Source of the DNA: a virus
DNA length: 64,000 nucleotides
Strand: one strand, 5' to 3'
IMG/VR virus record: IMGVR_UViG_3300036770_005778
Location: 1 to 64,000 of that record
This document shows positions 4,772 to 20,112 of the stretch, in pieces. Made by a program: the position numbers and the translations under genes. How positions within the stretch are numbered: the first letter of the stretch is position 1; each line of letters starts with the position of its first letter. Under the pieces are notes generated by a model. That model was not told where the DNA came from, did no database searches, and saw only the letters and a list, made by a program, of their open reading frames with translations.

Positions 4772-4797
4772 ACCCTACCCTGAGTAGGGTTTCTTTT
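4772..4797 (+). terminator. intrinsic terminator after tRNA cluster
   Basis: ACCCTAC-loop-GTAGGGT followed by TTCTTTT. Confidence 0.7.
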
Positions 4798-4976
4798 GGG
4801 TCAGTAGGCGCTGACTTTCCGCTGCGGAGAAGATCACGTGTCGCGAACAGTTGGTAAGCACTGACTAGGAGGGGCAGTGCCTAGCGTGTGGCATTTTGGC
4901 AACAGGTGATCTTTTGGTAGACAATTAGGCAGTCTGGGTGCATAATACTAGTATGATGAAGCAGACGGAGCGGACA

Positions 4977-5300
4977 ATGGCTAGAGCAAAGCGATCAGAT
5001 CGCAATCACATCATCTACGAACTGGTGTTGCCCCAGGGCAATTACATCGGAGTCACGGCCAAGACGGAGACCACTGTACTGAAGTCGGTGCGGGCTAGGG
5101 CCGCCAAGCACTTCTACCGCGCCAAGACGGAGACCAAGAACTGGCTGCTCTGCGAAGCGCTGAGAGGGATCGCTAGCAAAGAAGACATAGAGATCCGTGT
5201 ACACGAGATCGTCCGTGGCAAAGCAGATGCCCACAAGCGGGAAGTTGAGATCCGCAGGACTGTGAAGCCCACCCTGAACACGGATGTAAGGGGAGATTGA
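4977..5300 (+). CDS. GIY-YIG-like nuclease domain protein
   Basis: IIYEL...NYIGVT...R...H...E...LN pattern. Confidence 0.6.
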   Translation: MARAKRSDRNHIIYELVLPQGNYIGVTAKTETTVLKSVRARAAKHFYRAKTETKNWLLCEALRGIASKEDIEIRVHEIVRGKADAHKREVEIRRTVKPTLNTDVRGD

Positions 5301-5301
5301 C

Positions 5302-5469
5302 ATGATCGACTTAGGTGAATTTGATGCACGGGCTACAATCCGGGCCAGTGCCGAGGAGCAGGACTCAGTGTTCGCCCGGCATCGGGCCAGAGTCCAGGCC
5401 TTGATGCTTGACAAAAGACCTGAATGGGCATACAATAGAGACTTAGTTAAACAAAAGGAGCGAAGATGA
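5302..5469 (+). CDS. hypothetical protein (55 aa)
   Basis: Manual ORF MIDLGEFDARAT..., GGAG upstream. Confidence 0.45.
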   Translation: MIDLGEFDARATIRASAEEQDSVFARHRARVQALMLDKRPEWAYNRDLVKQKERR

Positions 5470-5717
5470 AAGCACTAAACGATTACGTAGAAGGACGCAA
5501 CCGTATCCGCGCACTGTTCAAGCAACGGCCCTTGAGCCTAGACAGTGCCAAGGATCGGCAGCAACTGGCCGACGACATCTCCTGCTCGCTGAGCCCGGAG
5601 AACTTGACCTGCGACGGTGAGATTCCTAGGTCGGTGGTAGAGAAGAAGTACCGGATGCTGACCCAGGTGCGGGGGCAACTCCTGCGCATGGACCCTGCGG
5701 TTTCATTCTACGAATAG
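5466..5717 (+). CDS. conserved phage early protein
   Basis: LSPENLTCDGE motif; own promoter and RBS. Confidence 0.8.
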   Translation: MKALNDYVEGRNRIRALFKQRPLSLDSAKDRQQLADDISCSLSPENLTCDGEIPRSVVEKKYRMLTQVRGQLLRMDPAVSFYE

Positions 5718-5725
5718 GGGGCTGT

Positions 5726-5857
5726 ATGCAACGAGGAACTATCTGCGTCTTGCGCTGGGCTTGGATCGACGGAGTATGCGAAGAGTTGATCATGCCCTTG
5801 AACGATCAGTGGCAGTACCGAGAGTGGTCGGGTTGTTTTAGCTATCTAGGAGATTGA
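5726..5857 (+). CDS. hypothetical protein (43 aa)
   Basis: Manual ORF filling the gap. Confidence 0.4.
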   Translation: MQRGTICVLRWAWIDGVCEELIMPLNDQWQYREWSGCFSYLGD

Positions 5858-5858
5858 T

Positions 5859-6332
5859 ATGGAAACGGTAACATTACGCGGTGAGGACTTCAAGATCATC
5901 CACAACACCCTCTGCGATCTCAGGAACTTGGTGAGTCGTATGGAACGCAGCATGATCAAGGTCGACGAGTTCGATCGCATCATAGAGGGCTTCCAAATGG
6001 GGCTAGCAGATGCCTACGAGCAGGACGGTAGTGCCTTTGATCGCAAGACGGACTACTACAACCAGTTCCGTGAGGACAACGGGCTCCGGGCCATCTGGTC
6101 GATCTTCGAACTTGAAGAGCACGGGTTCCTGTTCAATCATCCCTGGGAGGGTGCCTCAATCCTGGTATACGGGCGAATCACAGTGAAGATCCAGGGTCCA
6201 ACCTGGGCAGACCTGTATCGTGCCGCTGACCTAGCCATAGAAGAGAGTGGTGACGATCACCATATCTTCATCGAGGGTTTTGGCAAATATGCCACAGACA
6301 ACTCCATGCTGGAGTTGACAACTGGCAGTTGA
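5859..6332 (+). CDS. hypothetical early protein
   Basis: AGGAG RBS; GDDHHIFIEGF motif. Confidence 0.75.
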   Translation: METVTLRGEDFKIIHNTLCDLRNLVSRMERSMIKVDEFDRIIEGFQMGLADAYEQDGSAFDRKTDYYNQFREDNGLRAIWSIFELEEHGFLFNHPWEGASILVYGRITVKIQGPTWADLYRAADLAIEESGDDHHIFIEGFGKYATDNSMLELTTGS

Positions 6333-6373
6333 GATCGTATAATAGAGACTTAGTTAACTGAAAGGAGCGCGAA

Positions 6374-6571
6374 ATGAACAAAGTGTATATCGTAGCAGGC
6401 GACAACGGTCTGGGCAACTCGGGCAATGTCGTGTTGGGTCTGTACCCCACGCAGGCTTTGGCTGAGAAGCGGGTAGAACAAGCCCGAGGAGTAGAAGCAG
6501 AATACGTCTACTTTGATGTGGTAGAAGTTGGCGCTGAGGGGGCCGATTGCCGCGTGGCAGTAGAAGGTTGA
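6374..6571 (+). CDS. hypothetical early protein
   Basis: Own promoter and GGAGCG RBS. Confidence 0.75.
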   Translation: MNKVYIVAGDNGLGNSGNVVLGLYPTQALAEKRVEQARGVEAEYVYFDVVEVGAEGADCRVAVEG

Positions 6572-6626
6572 CAATTGGGCAGTTTGGGCATACAATAGAG
6601 ACTTAGTTAACAACAAGGAGCGAGCA

Positions 6627-7034
6627 ATGGGTACACGATCACGAGTGGCCGTCATGCACGGCGACGTCTGCAAGTCAGTCTACTGCCACTACGACGGCTA
6701 TCTGGACTACACGGGCAGGATCCTGCAGGAACACTACGACAGCACACGGGCCAATCTCTTGGTGTCCATGGGTGATAACTCGGGCGTCAAAGAGACCGTA
6801 GAGGAGATGAACTTCTACAAGGACCGTGGTGAGGATGACGTTGACTTCCGTGTAGCCCACTCCTTCGAGGAGTTCCTGGAGCAGGTAGATCGTTGTTGCG
6901 GCGAATACTACTATGTGATGCGAGACGGCGTTTGGTACGCAGGGTGCCTCTACGAAACGGCTGGCTTGATCAAGAACGGGCTGGTTCCTTTGGCTGAGGC
7001 ATTGCAGGCCCTTGCAGTAGCAGAGGACGAATAA
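6627..7034 (+). CDS. conserved phage early protein
   Basis: MGTRS...VYCHYDGY...EYYY motif; own promoter. Confidence 0.8.
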   Translation: MGTRSRVAVMHGDVCKSVYCHYDGYLDYTGRILQEHYDSTRANLLVSMGDNSGVKETVEEMNFYKDRGEDDVDFRVAHSFEEFLEQVDRCCGEYYYVMRDGVWYAGCLYETAGLIKNGLVPLAEALQALAVAEDE

Positions 7035-7119
7035 CCCACCCTGTTGTAGGGTTTCTGGGCTTGACAAAAGAGCCCAGAGGCAGTACAATAGAGACTTAGT
7101 TAACAACAAGGAGCGAACT

Positions 7120-7359
7120 ATGCGGGACCACCCAAACATGTCGTATTGCATGTGCAACAATACGGAAGCCGCACTCAACCAGATCATGGACGCCATGGAC
7201 GAGCAGGGCGACGTAGACTTTGTAAAAGATTTGAGCATGGACGAACTACGCTCGTTCAACGAGATCGCGTTCATCGCTCGCCAATTCGCACAGAGGGCAG
7301 AGCGTGCCGTAGATCAAGTGATCAACGATCGGGTCGACGAAGTGCTTGACAAAGAGTGA
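7120..7359 (+). CDS. hypothetical early protein
   Basis: NMSYCM.NNT motif; own promoter. Confidence 0.75.
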   Translation: MRDHPNMSYCMCNNTEAALNQIMDAMDEQGDVDFVKDLSMDELRSFNEIAFIARQFAQRAERAVDQVINDRVDEVLDKE

Positions 7360-7403
7360 GTTTGGCCGTACAATAAAGACTTAGTTAACAAATAGGAGCG
7401 ACT

Positions 7404-8498
7404 ATGTATATCACATTCACAGAGGGCTGGTACAATATCAAGGGTCAGCCCACTAACGTTGGTGGACTCACTTTCAAACTAGTTGAGGACTACAAAGTAG
7501 CCAAGACTGGTGAGGGCTATGTTACAGTCGAAGGTGGTAGCCAGCCCGGCTTCCCTGATCGTAGCATCCGCATCAAATGCCGTCAGGGTGCCTACAATGT
7601 CGCAGGCAGTGCCAAACCCATCCCACAAGGAGTAGCAATGCTGACAGCATTGAAGAGCAAGAAAGGTGAGACTGTAACGGACTTCACCCAGGTCAAGGTC
7701 GAAGACTCGGCTGTAGCACACGAGACTGACGAAGAGATCATCGAGCGGACTCGCATGCGTTTCCAGATCCTCAAGGACATGACGCAGGCAGTCAAAGGCG
7801 GTGATGTACGTGCTATGATCGTCACAGGCCCTCCAGGCGTGGGCAAGTCGTTTGGCGTCGAAGAAGTACTTGCCAAAGACGACCTGTTCGACCTGATGGG
7901 TCAGCGCAAGCCCAAGTACGAGATCGTCAAAGGTGCTATGAGTGCCATCGGACTCTACTCCAAACTGTACAAATACAGTGACCCGAAGAGCATCTTGGTG
8001 TTCGACGACTGCGACAGCATCCTGCTGGACGATGTGGCGCTGAACATCTTGAAGGCTGCTTTGGATTCCAGCAAGAAGCGTACTATCTCGTGGAACACTG
8101 ACAGCCGTCTGCTCCGTTCAGAAGGAGTGCCTGACAAGTTCGACTTCAAGGGTGGTGCTATCTTCATCACCAACTTGAAGTTTGAGAACGTGCGTTCAAA
8201 GAAACTACAAGAGCACTTGGCTGCTTTGGAGAGCCGCTGTCACTATATCGATCTGCGCATGGACACGGATCGAGAGAAGATGCTCCGTATCAAGCAGATC
8301 GTCAAGGACGGTATGTTGGACAGTTACGAGTTAGAAGACTTCGCCAAAGATGAGGTCGTGAACTTCATCGACGATCATCGTGGCGTCATGCGCGAACTGA
8401 GCCTGCGTACTGTGCTGAAAGTAGCAGATCTGCGCAAGAGTTTCCCTGCCAATTGGCAGAACATGGCTAAGGTTACTGTCATGAAGGGAGCCTACTGA
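7404..8498 (+). CDS. AAA+ ATPase with N-terminal extension
   Basis: Walker A GPPGVGKS, Walker B LVFDD, ITN sensor, SR arginine finger. Confidence 0.85.
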   Translation: MYITFTEGWYNIKGQPTNVGGLTFKLVEDYKVAKTGEGYVTVEGGSQPGFPDRSIRIKCRQGAYNVAGSAKPIPQGVAMLTALKSKKGETVTDFTQVKVEDSAVAHETDEEIIERTRMRFQILKDMTQAVKGGDVRAMIVTGPPGVGKSFGVEEVLAKDDLFDLMGQRKPKYEIVKGAMSAIGLYSKLYKYSDPKSILVFDDCDSILLDDVALNILKAALDSSKKRTISWNTDSRLLRSEGVPDKFDFKGGAIFITNLKFENVRSKKLQEHLAALESRCHYIDLRMDTDREKMLRIKQIVKDGMLDSYELEDFAKDEVVNFIDDHRGVMRELSLRTVLKVADLRKSFPANWQNMAKVTVMKGAY

Positions 8499-8689
8499 TG
8501 GGCTCTTTCATGAAAGTGGGTGGGATCGTGGCACTCATCCTGTTCCTGATCCTCGTAGGGCCTCTGTTAACTATTTGGGCCCTGAACACCCTGTTCCCCG
8601 TGTTGGCTATCCCCTACACGGTTTGGACATGGTTTGCCGTGGTGATCTTAGCGGCGGCAGTTCGAGCAAACGTTTCAGTCAAACGGTAA
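8498..8689 (+). CDS. small membrane protein
   Basis: Two hydrophobic helices; translationally coupled. Confidence 0.7.
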   Translation: MGSFMKVGGIVALILFLILVGPLLTIWALNTLFPVLAIPYTVWTWFAVVILAAAVRANVSVKR

Positions 8690-8786
8690 GACTGAGGCTT
8701 GCGATAGTTTCGAAAGATGCTATAATTATTGAACGCTGAATAAAAGTAATCAGCTATTTTTAACTTAACTTAAAGGAAACACACAC

Positions 8787-9059
8787 ATGAAGTTCATTTC
8801 TAAAGACACCAAGACTTTCAAGGTCTTCAATGCTCTGTACAACGGTGAGCGTCTCACCCAATCGCAGGCAGCCAAGCGTTTCGGCGTAAAGAACCTCAGC
8901 GCTGAAGTCAGCCGTATCCGTTCTAATGGTTACGCTGTCTACACTCGCAACCGTACCGCTGGCAACAATGTCACGGTCACTGAGTACGAGATGGGCAAGC
9001 CCAGCCGTGAGATCGTTGCTCTCGGCTACAAGGCCAAGGCCATGGGCATCACCCTGTAA
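8787..9059 (+). CDS. winged-helix DNA-binding protein
   Basis: LTQSQAAKRFGVKNLSAEVSRIRSNGYAV HTH pattern, basic. Confidence 0.7.
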   Translation: MKFISKDTKTFKVFNALYNGERLTQSQAAKRFGVKNLSAEVSRIRSNGYAVYTRNRTAGNNVTVTEYEMGKPSREIVALGYKAKAMGITL

Positions 9060-9063
9060 GGTT

Positions 9064-9103
9064 TCAAACACCCAAGCCGATTCGCTCCCGGGGCGGGGTT
9101 TGA
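9064..9103 (+). ncRNA. candidate 3'-UTR hairpin RNA with anti-RBS loop (copy 1)
   Basis: Stem TCAAAC.CCC...CCG / CGG...GGG.GTTTGA enclosing ATTCGCTCC, upstream of a terminator. Confidence 0.5.
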
Positions 9104-9134
9104 GGGCTGTGGCAGAAATGTCACAGCCCTTTTT
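9103..9134 (+). terminator. intrinsic terminator
   Basis: AGGGCTGTGGCA-GAAA-TGTCACAGCCCT + T-tract. Confidence 0.8.
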
Positions 9135-9212
9135 CTTTCTGGCACTCCAAACCGGTTGACAATTGGGCGGCCCGGCTATATAATAGAGATAATGGATAAC
9201 AAGGAGCGAACC

Positions 9213-9845
9213 GTGGAATTCACAGCAGATCAAGTTTGGGCCTATGCTGTCACAGCAGATCGCATCAACGGTGGCTATGTGAAAATGGATCAGTGGAGCA
9301 CTGATGGCCAGTGCGTGATCAAGCGGGCCAACAAGATGATGGTCAAAGAGTGGCTCCGCGAGAACTACTGCGGTGAGGACACCGAAGCGGATTGGGAGAC
9401 TGGCCGCAGGTTCCGCCAGCATTTCAACTCTTACACCTTCTTGGCTATCCAGGGCAAACTCAACGACTTCCAGCGGCAGGCTCTGAAGATCGCACAGATG
9501 GACCGGTTCACGGGCAAGAATATGCTAGAGTTCTCGATCATCTCGTGCCTGCCCGATGTGGCCCGTAGAGATCAAGCCCAGAACAAGTTCAAGCAGGATC
9601 TATATGCTTCCGAACCCATCCAGGGTGCCGAGGGAGAAAAGATCTCGGGCTACTTCACAGTAGAGCAATGCCGGTTCAACCCCAACTACAATAAATTCAG
9701 GATCCAGGGTCGTATGGGCGAATCGTTCGTGGACTTTTGGTTCGGGCGGGAACTGTTAGTAGGCGCTAACTTACCCATCAAGGGCAAGATCAAGCGGCTG
9801 CGTGGCGATAAAACCACACAGTTGAATTTCGTTAGAGTAGGTTGA
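9213..9845 (+). CDS. conserved phage protein, possible C-terminal OB-fold
   Basis: GTG start after GGAGCGA; ends KTTQLNFVRVG. Confidence 0.7.
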   Translation: MEFTADQVWAYAVTADRINGGYVKMDQWSTDGQCVIKRANKMMVKEWLRENYCGEDTEADWETGRRFRQHFNSYTFLAIQGKLNDFQRQALKIAQMDRFTGKNMLEFSIISCLPDVARRDQAQNKFKQDLYASEPIQGAEGEKISGYFTVEQCRFNPNYNKFRIQGRMGESFVDFWFGRELLVGANLPIKGKIKRLRGDKTTQLNFVRVG

Positions 9846-9918
9846 CAATTACAGGGTTTGGCCTTATAATTATGATACTGGGAAAGCAATTCGTAGTTTA
9901 ACTTTTTAGCGAGGTCTT

Positions 9919-11004
9919 ATGTCAAAGCAAACTGATATTTCCGTCCGCCAAGTTGGACCAAAGGGTGCCAAGAAGGCGATCCGTAAGGCGATCAAAGTTC
10001 GCCGTCCTACTTTCCTGTGGGGCCCTCCTGGAATTGGTAAATCCGACATCGTCAAGCAGATTGGCGATGAACTCGATCGCGAAGTCATCGACGTGCGATT
10101 GGCCCTTTGGGAGCCCACAGACATCAAGGGTATCCCTTACTACAATTCCGATCAAGGCAGAATGGTCTGGGCACCTCCAAGCGAGCTGCCTACGGACCCA
10201 GAGTCCACGGCGATCATCTTCTTGGACGAGTTGAACTCCGCTCCTCCAGCCGTACAGGCTGCGGCCTACCAGTTGATCCTTAACCGCCGGGTAGGCACCT
10301 ACGAACTGCCCAAGGGCGTTGACATCGTTGCCGCTGGTAACCGTGAAGGCGATCGTGGCGTGACCTATCGTATGCCTGCTCCGTTGGCTAACCGCTTCGT
10401 CCACTTGGAGATGAAGGTAGACTTCGATGACTTCCAGGACTGGGCTACGCTCAACAAGGTGCATCCAGACGTGGTTGGTTATGTTGGTTTCGCCAAGCAG
10501 GACCTCTACGACTTCGATCCTAAGAGTGCCTCTAAGGCGTTCGCTACTCCTCGTTCTTGGGTGTTCGTCAGCGATTTGCTAGACGATGACGACACTGACA
10601 CCGATACGCTGGCTACCCTTATCGCAGGCGCCATCGGTGACGGGCTCGCCAACAAGTTCATGGCTCACCGTAAGATCGCAGGTAAACTGCCCAAAGCAGA
10701 TGACATTCTCGATGGCAAGGTCAAGGACCTGCAGATCAAGGAGGTGTCAGCCATGTATTCGTTGACGGTGAGTCTCTGCTACGAACTCAAGGACCGTGCT
10801 GAGAAGAAGGCCAAGGGCTGGGATGCTATGGCAGATAACTTCTTCTCCTACATGATGACGAACTTCCCAACGGAGTTGGTGGTTATGGGTGCCAAGACTG
10901 CACTGACCAACTACAACTTGCCCTTGGACGCTAGTAAGATGAAGTCCTTCGACGAGTTCCACAAGCGGTTCGGCAAGTATGTTTTGCAAGCGATGGAGAA
11001 CTAA
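9919..11004 (+). CDS. MoxR-type AAA+ ATPase
   Basis: GPPGIGKS, IFLDELN, AAGN, LANRF, TPRSW. Confidence 0.9.
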   Translation: MSKQTDISVRQVGPKGAKKAIRKAIKVRRPTFLWGPPGIGKSDIVKQIGDELDREVIDVRLALWEPTDIKGIPYYNSDQGRMVWAPPSELPTDPESTAIIFLDELNSAPPAVQAAAYQLILNRRVGTYELPKGVDIVAAGNREGDRGVTYRMPAPLANRFVHLEMKVDFDDFQDWATLNKVHPDVVGYVGFAKQDLYDFDPKSASKAFATPRSWVFVSDLLDDDDTDTDTLATLIAGAIGDGLANKFMAHRKIAGKLPKADDILDGKVKDLQIKEVSAMYSLTVSLCYELKDRAEKKAKGWDAMADNFFSYMMTNFPTELVVMGAKTALTNYNLPLDASKMKSFDEFHKRFGKYVLQAMEN

Positions 11005-11020
11005 GACCTCGCCCATCGCA

Positions 11021-11058
11021 GGGCGGGGGCTTGCCCAGAGTTCCCGCCCACCTTTTTT
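11021..11058 (+). terminator. intrinsic terminator
   Basis: GGGCGGG...CCCGCCC followed by T-tract. Confidence 0.6.
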
Positions 11059-11116
11059 GGTTGACAAATCAGCGACACGACATTATAATAGATACATACA
11101 GTAAGGAGAGCGAGCA

Positions 11117-12331
11117 ATGTCAAATTCAGCGATCATCGAAAAGTTAACCACAGCCCGAGTAGGCCTGCTACTCAAAGCACCGTTCTTCGGCAACATGGCC
11201 ACCCGCATGAAACTGATCGAATCAGATGACTGGTGCCCGACTGCGGCCACAGACGGACGCAACTTCTTCTACTCTACCAAGTTCGTAGAGAAACTGTCAG
11301 TCAAGAAACTAGAGTTCCTGTTCGCACACGAGATCTGCCACGCTATCTTCGATCACTTTGGTCGCGTGGGTTCGCGTGATCGTACCCTGTCTAACATCGC
11401 GCAGGACTATGCCGTCAACCAGATCCTCGTAGATGAGCGCATCGGTGAGAAGATCACTGAAGTGCAGATCTGCTACGATCCCAAGTATCGCGGCATGGCC
11501 TGGGAAGAGATCTACGATGAACTCTGGGAAAAAGCAGAGAAGATCAGCCTGCCCGAACTGATGAAGCAACTGGGCGATCTGCTTGACGAGCACATCAAAG
11601 AAGAAGAGGGTGCCGGTGCTGGCGACAAAGACAAAGATGGCAAAGGCAAGCCCAGCCTTACCAAAGAAGAAGCAGAGCAGATCCGCCAGGAGATCAAGAA
11701 TGCTATGATCCAAAGTGCCGCGGCCAGTGGTGCAGGTAAAGTGCCCGCAGGTATCCAGCGTATGATCAAGAACTTGACCGAGCCCAAGATGGATTGGCGT
11801 CAACTTGTTCGTCAGGAGATCCAAAGCATCGTCCGCAATGACTATTCTTTTACCCGCCCTAATCGTAAGAGTATGCACTCAGGTGCCATCCTTCCGGGCA
11901 TGAAAGAGGCTACTACTATCGATGTGGCTATTGGCATCGATATGAGCGGAAGCATCGGCGATGAGGATGCCAAAGTGTTCTTGAGCGAAGTCAAAGGTAT
12001 CATGGATCAGTACGAGGACTTCAAGATCAATATCTGGTGCTTTGACACAGAGATCTATAACGCACAAGAGATCACGCACGATAACAGTGAGGACCTCGTT
12101 GACTACGAGCCCATGGGCGGTGGTGGCACGGACTTTGAAGTCAACTGGACATTCATGCAAGATAATGGTATCCAGCCCAAGAAGTTCATCATGTTCACAG
12201 ACGGCTACCCTTGCGGTTCGTGGGGTGACGAAGACTACTGCGATACCATATTCGTTGTCAAAGGCAACGACAAGGCGCAGGCTCCGTTTGGACAGACTGT
12301 GATCTACGAGCGGGAGACAGCGGCGGCCTAA
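11117..12331 (+). CDS. DUF2201-type metallopeptidase + VWA domain protein
   Basis: TAATDG, HEICH (HExxH), MIDAS DMSGS, GGGT, FTDG. Confidence 0.88.
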   Translation: MSNSAIIEKLTTARVGLLLKAPFFGNMATRMKLIESDDWCPTAATDGRNFFYSTKFVEKLSVKKLEFLFAHEICHAIFDHFGRVGSRDRTLSNIAQDYAVNQILVDERIGEKITEVQICYDPKYRGMAWEEIYDELWEKAEKISLPELMKQLGDLLDEHIKEEEGAGAGDKDKDGKGKPSLTKEEAEQIRQEIKNAMIQSAAASGAGKVPAGIQRMIKNLTEPKMDWRQLVRQEIQSIVRNDYSFTRPNRKSMHSGAILPGMKEATTIDVAIGIDMSGSIGDEDAKVFLSEVKGIMDQYEDFKINIWCFDTEIYNAQEITHDNSEDLVDYEPMGGGGTDFEVNWTFMQDNGIQPKKFIMFTDGYPCGSWGDEDYCDTIFVVKGNDKAQAPFGQTVIYERETAAA

Positions 12332-12451
12332 GTGCCGGGGGCTGTGGCTTTTTTGCAACAGGCCCCGCTGTTATACGTGTGCGTACAGAGTTGACAAAAG
12401 ACTTATCCGATCGTATAATATAGATACTGAGAAACAACTTAGGAGCGAGCA

Positions 12452-12721
12452 ATGAATGATCTAAGAAACATCCTAGTAGACATCCGCAACGGTGATTTCA
12501 ACAATGATGATCTTAACCTGATCATCGAGGCCGTCAAGTTCAAGCGAGCACAGAATGCCCGCAAGGCTGCGAATACTCTTAGGATCGGTGAGCAGGTCAC
12601 GTTCAACGGTAAGAACGGTCCTGTGGTAGGACGTCTTGAGCAGATCAAGATCAAAAAGGCCATCGTGGTCAGTGGTATGACCCGTTGGAATGTTCCACTG
12701 GCAATGTTGGAGGCTGTATAA
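12452..12721 (+). CDS. hypothetical early protein (SH3-like C-terminus)
   Basis: Own promoter/RBS; beta-rich C-terminus WNVP. Confidence 0.75.
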   Translation: MNDLRNILVDIRNGDFNNDDLNLIIEAVKFKRAQNARKAANTLRIGEQVTFNGKNGPVVGRLEQIKIKKAIVVSGMTRWNVPLAMLEAV

Positions 12722-12849
12722 TGCAACTACTGATTGGGTTTATCCTAGGAGTCGTGGTGTCTACGATCGGATTCTCGGGCGTGGCCTATTACGCCGATCA
12801 AGGCGTCAACAAGATCAAAGAAATCACACAAGAGGCGACTAACAAATGA
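12721..12849 (+). CDS. small membrane protein (42 aa)
   Basis: Manual: MQLLIGFILGVVVSTIGFSGVA... Confidence 0.6.
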   Translation: MQLLIGFILGVVVSTIGFSGVAYYADQGVNKIKEITQEATNK

Positions 12850-13025
12850 GCATCATGAAAGACCTAGCCTATGATATCGAACAGATGTGGATCGAAGGAT
12901 ATCGTCCGATCACGATCGCAGGTCTGCTCGATTGCCACGTAGACCTAGTCTACGATTGGATCGAGTCCAACAACCTGAGTGCCGACGAGGCTTCGTATGA
13001 CCCGCACGACACCATCAACTCCTAA
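12846..13025 (+). CDS. small acidic HTH-like protein (59 aa)
   Basis: Manual: MSIMKDLAYDIEQMWIEGYRPITIAGLLDCHVDLVYDWI... Confidence 0.6.
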   Translation: MSIMKDLAYDIEQMWIEGYRPITIAGLLDCHVDLVYDWIESNNLSADEASYDPHDTINS

Positions 13026-13105
13026 CCGCGATCCTGCGCCGGCAGACGACTCATACGAACTGCCCCCGCATACAGATTAAGAATTGTTCTTGTTGCGCTC
13101 CCTTT

Positions 13106-13133
13106 GACCCTGCTCGCATCAGGGTCTTTTTTT
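13106..13133 (+). terminator. intrinsic terminator
   Basis: GACCCTG-loop-CAGGGTC + T7. Confidence 0.8.
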
Positions 13134-13191
13134 GGTTGACAATTGGGTGCTCTGGCTGTAGAATAGAGATACTGGATAACAAGGAGCGGCT

Positions 13192-13392
13192 ATGGGCTAC
13201 ACGGTATTCGAGCGGGATGTGAACTACGGACCACGTAACGGACTGGAAGGACCCTTCCACTATCCAAACGGGCAGGTCCTGTACTATGATCCCAAAGCGG
13301 GCGAGTACTGGGATCCAACCACGGACTTCTACGTGCCCAACGAAGATGTGGCTCGTTTGCAACAGACGATCTTCGACTCAATCCGTGGTTGA
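13192..13392 (+). CDS. conserved phage early protein
   Basis: GLEGPF..LYYDPKAGEYWDPTTDFY motif. Confidence 0.8.
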   Translation: MGYTVFERDVNYGPRNGLEGPFHYPNGQVLYYDPKAGEYWDPTTDFYVPNEDVARLQQTIFDSIRG

Positions 13393-13451
13393 CAATTGGA
13401 CGATTTGGCTGTAGAATTATGATACTGGGAAAACAAAACAAGGAGCGAAAG

Positions 13452-13799
13452 ATGACTGCAACATTCGATACCGTAAAAGTGCAAATGGCCCACGCATTGG
13501 CCCTGCATGAAGCCAAACACGCCGCGTATGGCTTCGCCCATAAGCACATGGGTGGCAAGGATGGCGGACCCTGCGGATTTGCCTGGGTCAACATCTACAA
13601 GGTCAGGAAGAACTCCAAACTGGGAAAGGCCTTGGAGGCAGTAGGGTTCCGTAAATCCTACGATGGCAGTTTCCAACTCTGGAACAAGTGGTGGCCAGGG
13701 CAGAGCGTGGATGCGGCCGATGCTGGTGCGTGTGCCTATGCAGAGACCATGCGCAGAGAATTAGGTCTGGACTTCTACGCAGGTAGCAGGCTGGACTAA
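13452..13799 (+). CDS. conserved phage early protein
   Basis: CGFAWV...SRLD motif. Confidence 0.8.
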   Translation: MTATFDTVKVQMAHALALHEAKHAAYGFAHKHMGGKDGGPCGFAWVNIYKVRKNSKLGKALEAVGFRKSYDGSFQLWNKWWPGQSVDAADAGACAYAETMRRELGLDFYAGSRLD

Positions 13800-13920
13800 G
13801 TCCCAGGTTGATCGCTGGGCCAGGGTGGGCGAGCAACCCCCGCCCTGTTAGAACAAATTGGTTGACAATTGGACGGTCTGGGCTTATACTGTAGGTATAG
13901 TGAAAGACAAGGAGCGCGAA

Positions 13921-14169
13921 ATGCAGACAGAAAAAGAAAAGGTAGTAGGCGCCCTGCGGGGTTGGGAATTCATCCGTGAGCGCCACGGTAGCCTGTTTGA
14001 TCGCGGCAGTGCCGATTCCTACTACGGTCGGGCACCTGATCCGCACTACGGTGGCGTTGGTGGCGACAGTGGGATCCGTGTCAAGGTTATGTACACAGAA
14101 GCCGTGGCAGAATACATGGCGGGCTACGAGGACAACGAGAAGTTCGGTCACAAGAAGGACTACGCCTAA
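13921..14169 (+). CDS. conserved phage early protein
   Basis: HGSLFDRGSADSYYGR...EYMAGY motif. Confidence 0.8.
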   Translation: MQTEKEKVVGALRGWEFIRERHGSLFDRGSADSYYGRAPDPHYGGVGGDSGIRVKVMYTEAVAEYMAGYEDNEKFGHKKDYA

Positions 14170-14516
14170 TGGAAGCGGTCCGTGAGATCACTGCTTGGGA
14201 TGTAGAGTACCGACAGCCCAATCACATCTACCTGCTAGACGGGGACCGTGTTAAGGCCTACATCAAGTGGGGCGAAGGTCCGGTAGAATGGCTGTCAGGA
14301 AAGGTCAAGATTGATCGCCGTGGCCGTAAGTTCGAGAAAGCAGACATTGGTCTGTTCGAAGTTAAAGAAGCAAAGGATCCTGTGATCTTGGAAGTGCCTG
14401 GTAGCAAGGGTGCGACCTACTATGTGAACACAGAAACTGGGACCTGCACCTGCCCTGGATTCACTTTCCGTGGTGCCTGTAAACACACAAAGGAGTTAGA
14501 ACTTGAAGACTACTGA
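14169..14516 (+). CDS. SWIM zinc-finger protein
   Basis: YYV...CTCPGF.FRG.CKH. Confidence 0.8.
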   Translation: MEAVREITAWDVEYRQPNHIYLLDGDRVKAYIKWGEGPVEWLSGKVKIDRRGRKFEKADIGLFEVKEAKDPVILEVPGSKGATYYVNTETGTCTCPGFTFRGACKHTKELELEDY

Positions 14517-14531
14517 TCAAGAATACGCGAG

Positions 14532-14867
14532 ATGGGTTTGGACTACTACGGGCCGTATGTTCCTACAGGCCGTGGCGATCTACGGTGGGCTGTTAGGTGC
14601 CTATTGGGTGCTAGTAGGATGATCGACCAGTTCCTTTGGTTCTGCCTGCCTGAGGAGGACAAGAGGTTCTTAGAACCATACAGATCCCCTAAGACCGAGA
14701 CCAGCCTGTTCAAATGGATACCTGTGGCAGAAAAGCCACGAGCACGGGATCTCTGCTTGAAACTGGGGCTGCGTGTCCGGGTAGTCTACAGAGGGCCTAG
14801 GAAGCGGTGGGCAGCTCACACGGCCCAAGAAGATGCTACCCATTTCACGGTCTATCCAATCGGTTGA
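14532..14867 (+). CDS. hypothetical protein
   Basis: Fills the gap; RVVYRGPR motif; start uncertain. Confidence 0.55.
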   Translation: MGLDYYGPYVPTGRGDLRWAVRCLLGASRMIDQFLWFCLPEEDKRFLEPYRSPKTETSLFKWIPVAEKPRARDLCLKLGLRVRVVYRGPRKRWAAHTAQEDATHFTVYPIG

Positions 14868-14922
14868 CAATTGGCGGGTTTGGCCGTATAATGTAAGTAT
14901 AGTGAAAAACAAGGAGCGAAAA

Positions 14923-15189
14923 ATGACATCAGCACAATCCAAATTCAACGCATATCTAGACGAATGCCGTGAAACCCGAGAGGCTTTGGGTGCCTTTGAG
15001 AAGGCAGTCCACGAAAAGTATGATGGTTCGGGCTACGCCTATATCGCAGGCTACATGATGACCCAACTACAGGATGCTATCACCCACTTGCCCAAAGCCA
15101 AACGGGCAGAGTTCCGTGAGACTTTCCTCCGTGCAGCCAAGAAGTTCGAGCAAGAGAACCTCATGAAGATGATCAAGGAGACTGCATGA
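14923..15189 (+). CDS. hypothetical early protein
   Basis: Own promoter and GGAGCGA RBS. Confidence 0.75.
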   Translation: MTSAQSKFNAYLDECRETREALGAFEKAVHEKYDGSGYAYIAGYMMTQLQDAITHLPKAKRAEFRETFLRAAKKFEQENLMKMIKETA

Positions 15190-15374
15190 TCACCAACATC
15201 AACTATCTGAAGACAGCCATAGGAGTCCTCGAACAAGGGCAGACTCCTATGACGGAAGCCAAGATCCTTAAGATCATGCGGGATATCTGCGAGATGAACA
15301 TCCAGCGGATCGAGCAGAATTTGGTTGACAAAGTAGAAGATCGGTTGTATAATAAAGATACAGTAAACGAATAG
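15186..15374 (+). CDS. hypothetical protein
   Basis: ATGA overlap, AAGGAG RBS. Confidence 0.6.
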   Translation: MITNINYLKTAIGVLEQGQTPMTEAKILKIMRDICEMNIQRIEQNLVDKVEDRLYNKDTVNE

Positions 15375-15383
15375 GAGCGAACT

Positions 15384-15500
15384 ATGGAATTTGAAGATCT
15401 GTTTGATGATGTAGACGAAACTGTGATAGATGAAGATCTAGACATCGACGAAGCAGTAGATATCCTCTACGATGCGATCTATGGAGACGACAATGCCTAA
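15384..15500 (+). CDS. very acidic 38-aa peptide
   Basis: Manual: MEFEDLFDDVDETVIDEDLDIDEAVDILYDAIYGDDNA; own promoter and RBS. Confidence 0.7.
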   Translation: MEFEDLFDDVDETVIDEDLDIDEAVDILYDAIYGDDNA

Positions 15501-16116
15501 TTGGTGCTCGAATTACATTTCCGTGCGCGGTCGTAGACAAGAGGCCGTGCAGAAGTTGGCGGATGCCTTTGATGCAGGTGAATTCTGCAATGCAGTGATC
15601 CCCTGTCCAGAAGATCTACTGCGTGATGGCAGTAGCACCCACGGCGGTCCTAACGCAGATGCCTACGACCAGATCCGTGCAGAGAACAAGGCCAAACACG
15701 GCTACGACAACTGGTATGACTTCAATGTGGCCAATTGGGGAACCAAATGGGACATCACTGTCAGTTCAGAGTGCGAGCGTGACGAAGACGGATTGAGTTT
15801 CAGCGGACAGTTCGACACAGCCTGGTCGCCACCTATGGGCATCGTAGAGCGATTGACCCAGCAGGGCTACGATGTCACCCTCTACTACTACGAGCCGGGC
15901 ATGGGCTTTGTAGGCAAGTATGAGGACGGTGTAGATGACTACTATGAACTGTCAGGTTTGGACAGTTCCACCGTGGCGGCCACCATCGGTGACGAATTGG
16001 ACGACTTCTTTGGCATCTCTGAACAGATGGCCGAATACGAGTCAGAGCAGGAAGAAGAAGAGCTCACAGAATGGATCAAAGATGGCGCTGACAAGCGTGG
16101 ATTGGTCACTGTATGA
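15493..16116 (+). CDS. DUF1281-like protein
   Basis: MPNWCSN...WYD...NWGTKWD...FDTAWSPP...YYEPGMGFVG. Confidence 0.8.
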   Translation: MPNWCSNYISVRGRRQEAVQKLADAFDAGEFCNAVIPCPEDLLRDGSSTHGGPNADAYDQIRAENKAKHGYDNWYDFNVANWGTKWDITVSSECERDEDGLSFSGQFDTAWSPPMGIVERLTQQGYDVTLYYYEPGMGFVGKYEDGVDDYYELSGLDSSTVAATIGDELDDFFGISEQMAEYESEQEEEELTEWIKDGADKRGLVTV

Positions 16117-16304
16117 GAACTTACCGTTTCCAATTTGAAGTGATCTGTGCCGGCCAAGGTCGGCCCGATCTCAAGAGAGTCGAAGACATGCTGGATCTCA
16201 GCATGCAGGATCTGGTCATGGACGACGAGTTTGTCGCCGCCCTAGACGAGACGGAAGCGGTGACCATCCAGGTTACGCCGCTGTTTGGTGATACAGATGG
16301 TTGA
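16113..16304 (+). CDS. hypothetical protein
   Basis: ATGA overlap. Confidence 0.6.
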   Translation: MRTYRFQFEVICAGQGRPDLKRVEDMLDLSMQDLVMDDEFVAALDETEAVTIQVTPLFGDTDG

Positions 16305-16377
16305 CATCTGGATTGGTTGAGTATATAATTAATATACTTGGTAGTTAGTTAACGCACACACACTTAGGAGATTTAGA

Positions 16378-16692
16378 ATGGCAACTTCAAAGACTTTCGC
16401 TGTAGCAGGTGTTTCCACCCACAAAGACGGCACCAAGATCCGTTTCGCCAACGATGCGGCTCGCGTCAAGATCTTGATCAAGAACGGACACACGGACATC
16501 GAGCTGATCGACCTGCCCCGGGAGATGACCAAGGCAGAGATCGCCCAATACCTGTTCGAAACCGACTTCGCTAAAGGTCGTGTTGCGGTCATGGACGCGA
16601 TCAAGGATCTAGCCAAAAAGAACCGTGTGAAGGCAGTGCCTGAAGTAAGTAAAAGTACCACTGCCGCGAAGGCAGAGGCCGTCGCCCAGTAA
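16378..16692 (+). CDS. small basic Lys/Ala-rich protein
   Basis: KIRFAND...L.KNGHTDIELIDLP..MTK; own promoter, RBS AGGAGA. Confidence 0.8.
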   Translation: MATSKTFAVAGVSTHKDGTKIRFANDAARVKILIKNGHTDIELIDLPREMTKAEIAQYLFETDFAKGRVAVMDAIKDLAKKNRVKAVPEVSKSTTAAKAEAVAQ

Positions 16693-16719
16693 GACCGATT
16701 CGCTCCCGGTTTGGGTGAC
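16681..16719 (+). ncRNA. candidate 3'-UTR hairpin RNA with anti-RBS loop (copy 2)
   Basis: GTCGCCC....AGACCG-ATTCGCTCC-CGGTTT-GGGTGAC hairpin upstream of a terminator. Confidence 0.5.
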
Positions 16720-16723
16720 ACTT

Positions 16724-16758
16724 GGGGGGCTGCTTTAACGGGCAGCCCTCTTTTTTTT
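16724..16758 (+). terminator. intrinsic terminator
   Basis: GGGGGCTGC...GCAGCCCTC + T8. Confidence 0.8.
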
Positions 16759-16776
16759 CTTCGGAGTAAATACAAG

Positions 16777-17160
16777 ATGATCATCGAATTCCTTATAGTC
16801 TTTGCTGTGGGTTTTTGGTTGGGCAGCCTCTTCCGGGGTGCCTGGATGGCTCTGAGTTTCCGTGAAATCCTCAAGGATCTAGGAGTCACTGATCAGCAAC
16901 TGCGTAACCTAGCAAAGAAGAATGGCCTAGATCTCGATGATCCAGAACCCACTGCTCGAAATGAGAAAGACGATCTTCCGGTGCTAGAAGTCCGCATCGA
17001 ACAGCATCCAGAAGGCCTGTTCGCATATCGCAAAGAGGACAACTTCTTTATCGCACAGGGCTCAGACCGCACCACACTGATGGAGAACCTGGTCAACAAC
17101 CTCACCAACGTCAGGGTCGTGGTAGCCAAAGAAGACGGGGCTGATCTGATCAACCCCTAG
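16777..17160 (+). CDS. membrane-anchored hypothetical protein
   Basis: N-terminal TM; TAAATA 4 nt upstream of ATG. Confidence 0.7.
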   Translation: MIIEFLIVFAVGFWLGSLFRGAWMALSFREILKDLGVTDQQLRNLAKKNGLDLDDPEPTARNEKDDLPVLEVRIEQHPEGLFAYRKEDNFFIAQGSDRTTLMENLVNNLTNVRVVVAKEDGADLINP

Positions 17161-17284
17161 GCAGTTAGTAAGCACTTACTTAATCCCGACTACGTTACTA
17201 CACTATTATAAAAAACACTTGCAAATTGGGCTGTGTTGCGCTATAATGTTTTTGTGTTAGTTAATAAGCAAATAGGAGCGTAAT

Positions 17285-17470
17285 ATGCAACAAGTAAACA
17301 ATGTTTTAGTAGCACTGCAAACAGCACACGCAACAGTGCGCATGGCTAAAGACTACGAGCAAGAAGAAGCAGTAAACGACACAGCGTTTGCAATTGTGGA
17401 ACTACTGCGCACACTGCACGACAACGATTTTGACATTGCAGATTTAGCACAGCAAGCGTTAGAGATGTAG
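17285..17470 (+). CDS. hypothetical early protein (island gene 1; no Pro or Ser)
   Basis: Own promoter 17219 and GGAGCG RBS. Confidence 0.8.
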   Translation: MQQVNNVLVALQTAHATVRMAKDYEQEEAVNDTAFAIVELLRTLHDNDFDIADLAQQALEM

Positions 17471-17562
17471 CATAAACGCAACAGCACTACACAGCACTTG
17501 CAATTTGGGCTGTGTAGTGCTATAATGTTTTTGTGTTAGTTAATAAGCAAATAGGAGCGTGT

Positions 17563-17895
17563 ATGTTAAAAATTACAAACACTACAGTAGAGCGTGATGA
17601 AGAAGAAGGCATGACTTACACGAGCTATGACGTAGAAGGCTTTGCTACGCTAGACGGTACGAGCATTTGGGACTACGACTATGCTAAGGAAGGCACACAG
17701 GTTAAAGTTACGCACATAGGCGTGACGGAGTACGACGACGAAGATTACGGCAAGAGCATTTATGTGACGCACGACAAAGGCTGGGAGATTTACACAGACA
17801 GAGGCTTTGAGCAGAGCATTAGTAGTGTGCTGGGCTTTGACGTTACGTTTACAGAGCAAGGCATGCAAGACGACGAACTTGCGAGCATGGAGTAA
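17563..17895 (+). CDS. acidic hypothetical early protein (island gene 2; no Pro)
   Basis: Own promoter 17498; IYTD.GFE...FTEQGMQ motif. Confidence 0.85.
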   Translation: MLKITNTTVERDEEEGMTYTSYDVEGFATLDGTSIWDYDYAKEGTQVKVTHIGVTEYDDEDYGKSIYVTHDKGWEIYTDRGFEQSISSVLGFDVTFTEQGMQDDELASME

Positions 17896-17973
17896 CTTTT
17901 ACGCAACACTACGCACTTGACATTTTGGGTGCGTAGTGCTATAATGCTTACACACTAAACAAACGGAGCGAAT

Positions 17974-18291
17974 ATGCAACTAGCAACTACAAAACAAACA
18001 CGTAAAATTGTAAGCAACTACTTTAACGGTATTAGTTTTAGCGGTAACAGTTGGACAGACAAGTGTGCAGGCGACGAGACTATGCGGCGTGTGGCGTTTA
18101 AGATTTGCGGCGGTAGCATGGAAGCAACTAGGCTAGAAACTATACGCAAAGACTTGCAGGCGCTGTTTATGCTGGCAGGCTTTGCTAACGAAGTTAAAAC
18201 AACGGACAGCACGAGCAAGCGTGTAGGGCTTTTGGCATACTGTAGGGACGACAGCGGTTGCTACGTGCGTGTTAAAGCACGGGCAAGTTAG
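17974..18291 (+). CDS. basic hypothetical early protein (island gene 3; no Pro)
   Basis: Own promoter 17917, RBS GGAGCGAAT. Confidence 0.8.
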   Translation: MQLATTKQTRKIVSNYFNGISFSGNSWTDKCAGDETMRRVAFKICGGSMEATRLETIRKDLQALFMLAGFANEVKTTDSTSKRVGLLAYCRDDSGCYVRVKARAS

Positions 18292-18406
18292 CACTAACTA
18301 ACAGGGTGTTGCGTTTTTGCAACACCCCCCGGCCCCGCTGCTAGCCGGTTGACAATTGGCGGGTTTGGCTGTAGAATGTAGTTACAGTGAAACAAAGGAG
18401 CGAACT

Positions 18407-18520
18407 ATGTTGAAACTCATCGGAATTGCGGCAGTAGTGTACGTGGGTTGGATCACCGGCATCATCCAAGCAGCACTTCTAATCACAGCCGCAGGGCTGA
18501 CTACTGTGGCGGGGCTGTGA
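18407..18520 (+). CDS. small hydrophobic protein (37 aa)
   Basis: Manual: MLKLIGIAAVVYVGWITGIIQAALL...; own promoter. Confidence 0.65.
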   Translation: MLKLIGIAAVVYVGWITGIIQAALLITAAGLTTVAGL

Positions 18521-18702
18521 TGTTTGGATTCAATCATCGAGTAAGCCGCCCAGCGACCAACGAACTCATCGACCTAGCAGAAGGCGGAGTCATCGACTGG
18601 GAGTCATTGGCCCGAGATCTGTTGGGCTGGATGAGCGAGCACGAAGTCGCAGAGTTCGCCCGACGCAATGACTACATCCGGGAGGAGGACGAGGATGCCT
18701 AA
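18520..18702 (+). CDS. hypothetical protein
   Basis: TGATG coupling; WMSE motif. Confidence 0.65.
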   Translation: MFGFNHRVSRPATNELIDLAEGGVIDWESLARDLLGWMSEHEVAEFARRNDYIREEDEDA

Positions 18703-18922
18703 GTATGTGTTCGAGCGCACCAGCCTAGTCACAGAGACTTTCACCGTGACGGCTGACGACGAGGATCAAGCCCTGGACCTAGTCCGGGACGGTGGGCCTA
18801 CAGTCAAAGTTGGTCCTATGCAGTGGCAGGATTGGTACGATGAGGAATACAGCCTAGATTCAGTAGAAGATGAACTGGTAACGTTCCTAAACTCAAAGGT
18901 GAAAGAATGCGCTATTTCCTGA
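18695..18922 (+). CDS. hypothetical acidic protein
   Basis: GAGG RBS, MPKYVFER... Confidence 0.65.
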   Translation: MPKYVFERTSLVTETFTVTADDEDQALDLVRDGGPTVKVGPMQWQDWYDEEYSLDSVEDELVTFLNSKVKECAIS

Positions 18923-19260
18923 TATCGTTTGACTGCAACGGCCTGGAGTGCCTGCAGGACATCTCAGAGTTCCATCCCGACAACTGGGACAAGAACCAAC
19001 TCATGGGCATAATGATGGGCAAGGCCTACAAGAAGGCGCCCATCCATGCCCAGATCTCGCAGATGGTCATGCGGGCCAAATTCAACCCACAGCGCCACTA
19101 CGAGATCTACATACAGCAGGCCGATGACGATATCTCAGCCGCAGATTTCGCCAGTGTGTTTAACGACGATCCGCAGTTCTGGGCGGATTACGTCCGTGAG
19201 CATCATAGTGTAAAGATATACAGTGATCGCATCAAGAAGGGATCTAGGGTCATCGAGTGA
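18907..19260 (+). CDS. conserved phage hypothetical protein
   Basis: DCNGLE...RAKFNPQRHYEIY motif. Confidence 0.7.
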   Translation: MRYFLISFDCNGLECLQDISEFHPDNWDKNQLMGIMMGKAYKKAPIHAQISQMVMRAKFNPQRHYEIYIQQADDDISAADFASVFNDDPQFWADYVREHHSVKIYSDRIKKGSRVIE

Positions 19261-19329
19261 TTTTGGTTGACAACTCCTTGTTTTGGACCTATAATAGAAA
19301 CATAGGATAACAAAACAAGGAGCGACAAA

Positions 19330-19605
19330 ATGTACTTGGTTTATTCCGTGATAGCAGAACGTGATCACTACGAGGGCGATCGTGTGTATCCTTTGGCAGT
19401 GTTCGCAACCCGTGAAGAAGCAGTGGATTACGGTGTGGGCTACCTGTTCGATGACGATGGCGATGACCCTCGCATAGGCGTTATGGATTCCGTGCGTGTG
19501 GTAGAGTTCGACGGTGCCCTCCCTGCGGTGGACCTGTATGCTTACCGCGATGGTCTGGTAGGGCGTGGCGCTGGTGAGTGCGTGATGCGTTTGGCTGTGG
19601 CCTAA
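19330..19605 (+). CDS. hypothetical early protein
   Basis: Own promoter and RBS. Confidence 0.7.
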   Translation: MYLVYSVIAERDHYEGDRVYPLAVFATREEAVDYGVGYLFDDDGDDPRIGVMDSVRVVEFDGALPAVDLYAYRDGLVGRGAGECVMRLAVA

Positions 19606-19672
19606 TTTGGTTGACAATTCCCTAGTTTGGCAGCATAATAACAACTGTAGCAAAACACAACAAGGAGCGAAA

Positions 19673-19891
19673 ATGAAAGACATTGCACTGAACGTAGCCA
19701 ACATAGCCTATAAGACCGTGATTGGCATCATCATACTGCCCTTTATCGCAGTGGCTTTTGGCATAACCAAACTGCTGGGCGGCGAGCCCCTCAGCATGGA
19801 CGACATGGGCGCGGGCTTCATGATCATGTGTGCCATAGCCATTGGCTTAGCGATCGCTACGGTAGCATTCGGCATAGGATACCTGCTGTAA
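19673..19891 (+). CDS. membrane protein
   Basis: Two TM helices; own promoter. Confidence 0.7.
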   Translation: MKDIALNVANIAYKTVIGIIILPFIAVAFGITKLLGGEPLSMDDMGAGFMIMCAIAIGLAIATVAFGIGYLL

Positions 19892-20112
19892 TGCCGTTAA
19901 CTGCCCTAAAATGGCTGGGCACTGGGTTTACCATACTGGGAGCCCTGCTGACGAGCCTGGGATCATATGATCCTTATAATGTCACAGCATTCAACCTGGG
20001 TGCGGTGTTTTGGCTGTGGGCTTCGATCCGTATGCGAGATCCAGCGCTGATCACTGTGAACGCAGTGCTGTTGACAATCTATGTGTTTGGCAGTATACTA
20101 AGACTACAGTAA
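19891..20112 (+). CDS. small three-TM membrane protein
   Basis: LKWLGT...GAVFWLW...D.ALITVN. Confidence 0.65.
   Translation: MPLTALKWLGTGFTILGALLTSLGSYDPYNVTAFNLGAVFWLWASIRMRDPALITVNAVLLTIYVFGSILRLQ

Follow-up and report, generated by a model that had tools for sequence, protein, structure and literature searches.

Avoidance of a short motif is the footprint of whatever reads that motif. Here we describe an unusually sharp footprint, in which the dinucleotides TC and CC (together YC, a pyrimidine followed by C) are gone from whole transcription units of a viral DNA. The units form a small island in IMG/VR virus record IMGVR_UViG_3300036770_005778, of which we analysed positions 1 to 64,000 (the window, to which positions refer unless a relative is named). 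The record is a 75,031-bp contig, a fragment of an uncultured giant freshwater phage that CheckV rates as 21% complete, and the terminase of a related contig points by similarity to the PA5oct/RaK2 group of jumbo phages.

The island holds three small genes on the + strand. By its predicted features it strings together three immediate-early cassettes of the promoter-early stem-loop (PeSL) type, each with a promoter, a GGAGCG ribosome site and a small open reading frame (ORF) that encodes no proline. Table 1 lists the features of the island and of its edges.

Table 1. Features of the YC-free island and its borders in the window
Feature	Position	Strand	Remarks
Zone without TC and without CC on the sense strand	17187..18325	+	1139 nt; about 129 YC expected
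Left palindrome AGTAAG-CA-CTTACT	17167..17180	.	Outside the zone, between the stop codon of the upstream gene and P1
Early promoter P1 (TTGCAA-17-TATAAT)	17219..17247	+	Sigma70-like; within direct repeat D1
GGAGCG ribosome site of gene 1	17275..17280	+	From sequence
Gene 1	17285..17470	+	61 amino acids, acidic, isoelectric point (pI) 4.2, no Pro; ortholog in L001
PeSL-type composite element 2	17471..17533	+	Inverted repeat 17471-17495 / 17509-17533
Early promoter P2	17498..17526	+	Sigma70-like, near-consensus
GGAGCG ribosome site of gene 2	17554..17559	+	From sequence
Gene 2	17563..17895	+	110 amino acids, 26 Asp + Glu, pI 4.05, no Pro; conserved core of the island
PeSL-type composite element 3	17907..17945	+	Perfect 10-bp stem 17907-17916 / 17929-17938; -35 box of P3 in the loop
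Early promoter P3	17917..17945	+	Sigma70-like, near-consensus
GGAGCG ribosome site of gene 3	17965..17970	+	From sequence
Gene 3	17974..18291	+	105 amino acids, basic, pI 9.6, 4 Cys, no Pro; orthologs in islands of L001, L003, L035, L036, L038
Right palindrome AGTTAG-CA-CTAACT	18286..18299	.	Overlaps the stop codon of gene 3
Terminator hairpin GGGTGTTGC-GTTTTT-GCAACACCC	18304..18327	+	RNAfold; first CC of the right flank in its 3' arm
Next early promoter (TTGACA-17-TAGAAT)	18349..18377	+	Same class and ribosome site, YC-rich gene; serves as control

Absence of TC and CC

The zone is bordered by TCCC at 17184-17187 on the left and by CC at 18325-18326 on the right. In the contig as a whole and in the early region around the zone, 11.4-11.6% of dinucleotides are YC. 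The zone would arise by chance with a probability of about 1e-61 at a given start position and of about 1e-56 when all starts in the contig are counted. The second-longest YC-free run in the whole contig measures 89 nt. Runs on the + strand without GA and GG (together GR) nowhere exceed 99 nt. An earlier reading of the window from its letters alone (the sequence-only reading) had reported that TC and CC are missing here, had judged this to be beyond chance and had asked how the rest of the contig compares; these figures confirm it. Its description of the proteins is likewise accurate: all three have no proline, use only AGY for serine and only TTT for phenylalanine.

The ban also holds at codon junctions and across about 300 nt of non-coding island sequence, and a codon- or tRNA-level cause is therefore rejected. 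Cytosine itself is not scarce. It makes up a normal 18.7% of the island, each C being preceded by a purine; AC and GC occur at about twice their contig frequency, and TT and CT are not enriched. The missing enrichment of TT and CT indicates recoding rather than decay by C-to-T mutation.

The price of the ban is the loss of proline and of most serine codons, a price paid in many lineages and no longer paid in others. Functional proteins can evidently be encoded under so severe a dinucleotide restriction. Two of the 16 dinucleotides are banned, the zone spans about 1% of the phage genome, and each genome has just one or two such islands.

Cassettes and transcript boundaries

P1 and its leader recur at P2 and its leader as a direct repeat (D1) of 73 nt, with 92% identity between the two copies. 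P1 has no strong upstream stem, and no island gene lies upstream of it. Element 2 has a perfect 11-bp core (17485-17495 / 17509-17519), holds the -35 box of P2 in its loop and shows a U-run after the longer stem. The stems of elements 2 and 3 differ from each other through paired changes, and a stem bracketing the -35 box is found in relatives too. In L001, a relative of 90% identity, the left palindrome has a covarying version, TAAGTAAG-CA-CTTACTTA.

Cassettes come and go. L001 has one additional, fourth cassette, and the gene sets of islands differ between relatives in a cassette-like manner. Some metagenome contigs join 17239 to 17519, which deletes gene 1; others duplicate or replace cassettes. 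The joints seen (17239-17519, 17467-17891 and 17907-18278) show that in natural populations cassettes are deleted, duplicated or replaced between the promoter elements that repeat.

The edges of the zone follow transcription. In a set of about 25 independent islands, the distance from the last upstream YC to the -35 box is often 5-14 nt, and in five of them a YC stands inside the spacer between the -35 and -10 boxes. At the 3' edge YC reappears in the 3' arm of the terminal hairpin, a terminator or PeSL by RNAfold. Because YC is allowed upstream of the promoter and in its spacer, and is back in the terminal hairpin, the banned zone is the transcribed unit and not the promoter DNA.

Early promoters close to consensus, alike in spacer motif and ribosome site, number 17 in the contig, and only the three in the island drive YC-free units; the 14 other early units contain 29-63 YC per 400 nt. 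The island had been called native in the sequence-only reading on the ground that each gene has its own early promoter and GGAGCG, and the shared class of promoter in the 14 neighbouring units upholds this. The YC-rich neighbours would suffer equally from damage to DNA, so selection must act on expression of the island genes and not on integrity of the DNA.

The 17 promoters lie in window 4139-20100 (+), and many share the spacer (TTGACAATTGG...TTTGGC..TATAAT), a AGAGATAC-like start region and the unusual GGAGCG. One early gene nearby (window 15472-16113) encodes a ferredoxin-like domain of the DUF1281_C / Api92-like type (Pfam E 8e-8) and matches PHROG 20518 and 12644, which are families without assigned function.

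Selection and loss among relatives

The 110-amino-acid protein has 195 homologs, and of the best 120, 118 are without proline. IMG/VR contains 193 loci that encode relatives of it, and sequences were fetched for 80 of these. In many of the 80, YC is absent or nearly so over 0.4-2.8 kb (for example 1448 nt with none in L001, 2252 nt with one in L014, 1464 nt with three in L030 and 2765 nt with 12 in L082). No island purges one of TC and CC without the other, and proline is missing from nearly all of 114 island ORFs in the relatives. Homologs of 17563-17895 are thus free of YC and of proline in the window's clade, which was a check proposed with the sequence-only reading. One record has a second YC-free island (G005:C1:3404-4168, L146; 765 nt with one YC) 1.5 kb from the first, in which GA and GG are also depleted (34 in 765 nt).

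The island aligns with that of L001 over 1163 positions. Of these, 182 differ, and not one of the differences creates a YC; about 24% of all possible substitutions in the island would do so. Population variants listed in four metagenome runs also include none that creates a YC. To judge from these comparisons, the ban is kept by strong purifying selection and is not mutational in origin. In our estimate there is almost no chance that the ban is a by-product of mutation (for instance of transcription-coupled deamination of the exposed strand) or an artefact of assembly: such a cause could account for the strand asymmetry and for nothing more. Against it, AC and GC are doubled with no gain of TT or CT, close relatives show no imbalance in their C/T and G/A differences, and relaxed lineages regain YC quickly. 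The stretch is also present, at least in part, in metagenome runs from 10 studies, and over most of its length in one, which speaks against an artefact. C-to-T hypermutation was rejected on the unenriched TT and CT together with the balance of C/T and G/A differences.

In the family tree, the window's clade is ancestrally YC-free and proline-free. At least six independent partial relaxations have occurred within it, one of them in G001, a 400-kb genome rated 100% complete whose island is leaky. Most lineages in the clade stand at a YC count of zero. The YCs tolerated in near-strict islands show no preference for the base that follows. The sister clade has normal YC and contains prolines; its contigs are AT-rich and probably mostly marine. 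A normal sister clade and repeated relaxation mean that the ban is not inherent in the protein: some lineages maintain it, and it decays once selection is lifted. On the evidence of the tree, restriction to certain lineages and easy loss would fit a reader that is present in some hosts only.

Outside this family the island has no counterpart in the collections searched. PA5oct and RaK2, the cultured relatives by terminase similarity, have neither a YC-free island nor a homolog of the 110-amino-acid protein, a blastn search with the island found nothing similar among 50,697 phage records, and tblastn of a sister-clade homolog gave none either. Host matches in metagenome-assembled genomes are solely short contigs, in bins of four unrelated phyla. 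PA5oct has a 311-nt run free of GA and GG (NC_071039.1 267253-267563) that overlaps a 217-nt run free of TC and CC, probably an AT-rich spacer.

The island proteins and their sister-clade forms

None of the three island proteins belongs to a Pfam or PHROG family, and 10 island proteins from relatives gave nothing in Pfam or PHROG. The 110-amino-acid protein has the C-terminal motif W.IYTD.GFE..IS..LGFDV.FTEQGMQDD..ASME, and its AlphaFold model has an alpha/beta fold at a predicted local distance difference test score (pLDDT) of 92. Comparison of the model with solved structures produced no convincing match (Foldseek, nothing at E <= 0.001; best VIA-wide Z, 4.8). The ESM Atlas had no usable hit for this protein; for the 105-amino-acid protein the neighbours found there are viral hypothetical proteins only.

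In the sister clade the same domain takes another form. In nine of the 10 homologs examined it lies within a very acidic multidomain protein of 215-1005 amino acids. The multidomain gene of L045 is directly upstream of the large terminase gene, the multidomain protein of L066 contains a virion-structural-protein domain (phrog_13484, E 5e-26), and that of another sister-clade phage contains a cytidylyltransferase-like domain. The modules of these proteins end in the recurring motifs ..LAG[IML]E and ..ASME|G, and the free-standing proteins of YC-free islands stop exactly at ..ASME, which in the larger sister-clade proteins precedes G. Both motifs resemble (S/A/G)-X-E, the cleavage site of jumbo-phage prohead proteases. 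In five multidomain proteins of 506-1005 amino acids (L066:2121-5135, L055:3999-6335, L053:3567-5744, L051:4188-5705 and L085:38-1867) the sequence ..(R/K)LAG[IML]E or ..ASMEG often stands at the very C-terminus.

The sister-clade multidomain proteins may be packaged polyproteins. The motifs and gene neighbourhood suggest that sister phages would deliver the domain ready-made with the virion, and that the window's clade would make it from its first transcripts. By either route, virion delivery or first transcripts, the 110-amino-acid domain would be needed at time zero.

Avoidance of GA and GG

The same strand shows a second, weaker layer. GR has a frequency of 0.107 in the island, compared with 0.14 in the flanks, and GA alone occurs at 0.060 per nucleotide in the island against 0.062 in the contig. 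The statement in the sequence-only reading that GA and GG remain common is right overall and fails for the non-coding parts and for synonymous codon junctions. Non-coding parts of the island are nearly without GA and GG except for the conserved TGGG in each promoter spacer and the GGAG of the ribosome sites; leaders outside the island are GR-rich. In islands that seem to purge only YC, synonymous G-ending codons are used at 31% before codons starting with A against 49% before those starting with T (odds ratio 0.46, p 3e-6), and the flanks show no such effect (odds ratio 1.06).

Some relatives have 0.7-1.5 kb nearly without both YC and GR. L027:1-1500 has 6 YC and 15 GR, so that TC, CC, GA and GG total 21 in 1.5 kb; L014:3415-4300 has one YC with GR about halved; and L009:6950-7800 has 18 YC and 17 GR in 850 nt. 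Proteins encoded by the double-depleted ORFs of L027 and L014 use a reduced amino-acid alphabet in which D, E, G, P and W hardly occur. L009:6380-6950 is poor in GA and GG with normal TC and CC on the + strand, which an island gene on the other strand may explain. The GR layer suggests a reader that sees the two DNA strands unequally, or a second reader, or, for its mild form, avoidance of internal words resembling ribosome sites.

Two explanations gain from this layer. One is escape from a protospacer adjacent motif (PAM) of CRISPR (clustered regularly interspaced short palindromic repeats) defence, such as TTC or CC, or from another motif in double-stranded DNA. Relatives that purge YC and GR would indeed have no such PAM on either strand. 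DNA interference acts on either strand, yet most islands purge one only; moreover, the edges of the zone track promoter and terminator exactly, and a ban on two of the 16 dinucleotides goes far beyond what escape from a PAM needs. We regard this explanation as very improbable.

The other was proposed in the sequence-only reading: a bulky mark on virion DNA, on G in GA/GG or on C in TC/CC, would stop the host RNA polymerase, and genes on motif-free templates would be read first and serve as a bootstrap. Its appeal is that the ban is strand-specific, follows gene orientation and coincides with transcription units. The weaker GR avoidance on the sense strand, together with relatives that purge both motifs, fits a mark on both DNA strands, and a sister clade in which the protein perhaps arrives with the virion would need no YC-free gene. 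The genome content and the neighbouring genes do not bear it out. Such a mark would silence the YC-rich genes behind the 14 consensus early promoters, and the gene content of the islands is accessory and shuffled and not a fixed essential set. The phage hypermodifications described so far, hydroxymethylcytosine (hmC) and 7-deazaguanines, are not known to block host RNA polymerase, and no phage is known to have motif-free bootstrap genes.

Nor did the search for DpdA and hydroxymethylase genes that was proposed with the sequence-only reading find the enzymes. PF01702 (TGT/DpdA) and PF00303 (the ThyA fold of hydroxymethylases) are absent from the five records G000 to G004, which is weak evidence given that the window's contig (G000) is 21% complete and the complete genome (G001) has a leaky island. 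The methylase families PF00145 (C5) and PF02086 were not found in the contig, the complete 400-kb relative or the partial relatives searched. PF01555 was found only in G005, the sole N6/N4 methylase and in one of five records searched, and no methylase is common to the strict genomes. On balance the bootstrap is rather unlikely.

A possible reader of YC

The transcription terminator Rho offers an exact match in specificity: on nascent RNA its primary binding sites take up CC or UC dinucleotides, six at most (PMC13323073), and the depleted motif is this very ligand. A YC-free message could not load Rho, and the first transcripts would be completed even where ribosomes do not shield them. The zone spans the whole transcript including its untranslated regions, purine bias has been published as protection from Rho (PMC13323073), and the acidic 110-amino-acid protein could, as a speculation, be a Rho inhibitor. 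The fold search of its model had no Rho-binding protein among the listed matches, and no convincing match of any kind.

The details, however, sit badly with Rho. Loading takes several YC, so isolated ones should be neutral; yet most lineages have none, and single YCs are rejected (none among the 182 differences). Those tolerated are not enriched near 3' ends, a place too late in the transcript for Rho to act. Avoidance of GA and GG would be useless against Rho, and the YC-rich early units share the same promoters. Evasion of Rho is on these grounds distinctly unlikely.

The reading that we favour, at a rough probability of 0.45, is target-site avoidance: the first-wave genes would stay expressible in spite of a factor that acts by single hits at YC. 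Such a factor in the infected cell would read YC in the transcript, or the matching step of DNA under transcription, and its single hits would disable expression of ordinary YC-rich units. It could be an endoribonuclease or a nucleic-acid-modifying enzyme, and part either of a host defence or of a shut-off by the phage itself. The island genes would be first-wave effectors needed at time zero and for that reason written without YC. Zero counts in most lineages, rejection of new single YCs and the sacrifice of amino acids together fit a single-hit reader better than one that needs several sites. The alternative given in the sequence-only reading, evasion of a UC/CC-specific RNase or of a TC/CC-specific deaminase or ADP-ribosyltransferase acting on single-stranded DNA, is at least as likely as DNA modification; its DNA-damaging version is weakened by the YC-rich neighbours.

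Several observations weigh against target-site avoidance. The phage contigs yielded no known RNase or modifying enzyme specific for YC, and the runs listed as holding the stretch include no RNA run. Tolerated YCs in near-strict islands are evenly spread, with no enrichment near ribosome and start sites and no pattern of ribosome shielding. YC is avoided even in the 3' arms of internal stem-loops, where RNA would be double-stranded, and the avoidance of GA and GG is not predicted by a single reader of RNA only. A comparison of gene presence and absence between strict genomes and leaky or island-free ones gave no candidate reader, just a beta-sandwich protein and an NT5C nucleotidase, the genomes being too diverged for such a comparison. 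A literature search on anti-phage deaminases that act on single-stranded DNA returned nothing relevant.

A fuller version of target-site avoidance can be framed: an unrecognised reader of bare 5'-YC-3', found in some hosts or phages, would act by single hits on mRNA or on DNA under transcription, the window's clade would answer with a small set of YC-free immediate-early genes that make do with fewer kinds of amino acid, the 110-amino-acid protein would be the antidote, and sister phages would carry that antidote in the virion. Taken with all its parts this is tentative and on the doubtful side.

Whichever form it takes, the pattern points to an unrecognised sequence reader at work in the first minutes of infection by giant freshwater phages. 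The options are a defence enzyme, a shut-off weapon, a DNA mark or unusually strict surveillance by Rho. The relatives supply natural test pairs, the same gene in YC-free and YC-containing versions, and the reader, if found, could serve as a tool with dinucleotide specificity.

Comparison with known systems

Vertebrate RNA viruses deplete CpG to escape the CpG-binding protein ZAP, and share with the island the dropping of a dinucleotide that a host factor reads in RNA. In their case depletion is partial and genome-wide and the host eukaryotic; here it is total, covers about 1% of the genome and concerns a dinucleotide class, Y then C. Phage CAjan carries 7-deazaguanine modifications at GA and GGC, a DNA mark at motifs of the GA/GG type on both strands; no DpdA/TGT homolog was found here in the five records searched. 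Internal proteins of phage T4 are delivered with the virion, and the sister-clade domain resembles such proteins by its position next to the terminase, its virion-structural domain and its protease-like motifs. In the window the domain is instead a free-standing early gene, and packaging and cleavage in the sister clade are putative, suggested by sequence motifs.

The cassettes most resemble PeSL, a composite terminator/promoter element in variable regions of T4-type phages (PMC2839356, PMC4122927). Both combine a stem-loop with an early promoter of sigma70 type, repeated among small ORFs without assigned function in an early variable region, and in both the repeats mediate insertions and deletions by recombination, here visible in the joint of 17239 to 17519, the extra cassette of L001 and the shuffled gene sets. 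A dinucleotide ban has not been described for PeSL cassettes, and in the island even the stems are without YC or GR.

Rho shares with the presumed reader the recognition of UC/CC on nascent RNA and a coding-strand composition shaped to avoid it. The known bias is graded and genome-wide; that of the island is absolute, local and felt at the level of amino acids, with single YCs selected against and GA/GG avoided as well.

The nearest precedent is CmdT, of the CmdTAC defence against T-even phages, which ADP-ribosylates the adenine of GA in single-stranded mRNA and blocks translation (PMC11618068). CmdT acts in defence against T4-like phages, recognises no more than a dinucleotide in mRNA and needs a single hit to block expression, which makes it the type of reader that the island points to. 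It reads GA and not YC, and it is triggered late, by a capsid protein; in the island, GA is about as frequent as in the contig and is mildly avoided solely at synonymous junctions, which is not what evasion of a CmdT-type factor would leave.

Full-text literature searches found no earlier description of such YC-free islands. Avoidance of a motif to escape a sequence reader is known; new here is a ban that is local, absolute and bounded by transcripts, that concerns a dinucleotide class and that reshapes proteins. The reader behind the ban may be new as well.

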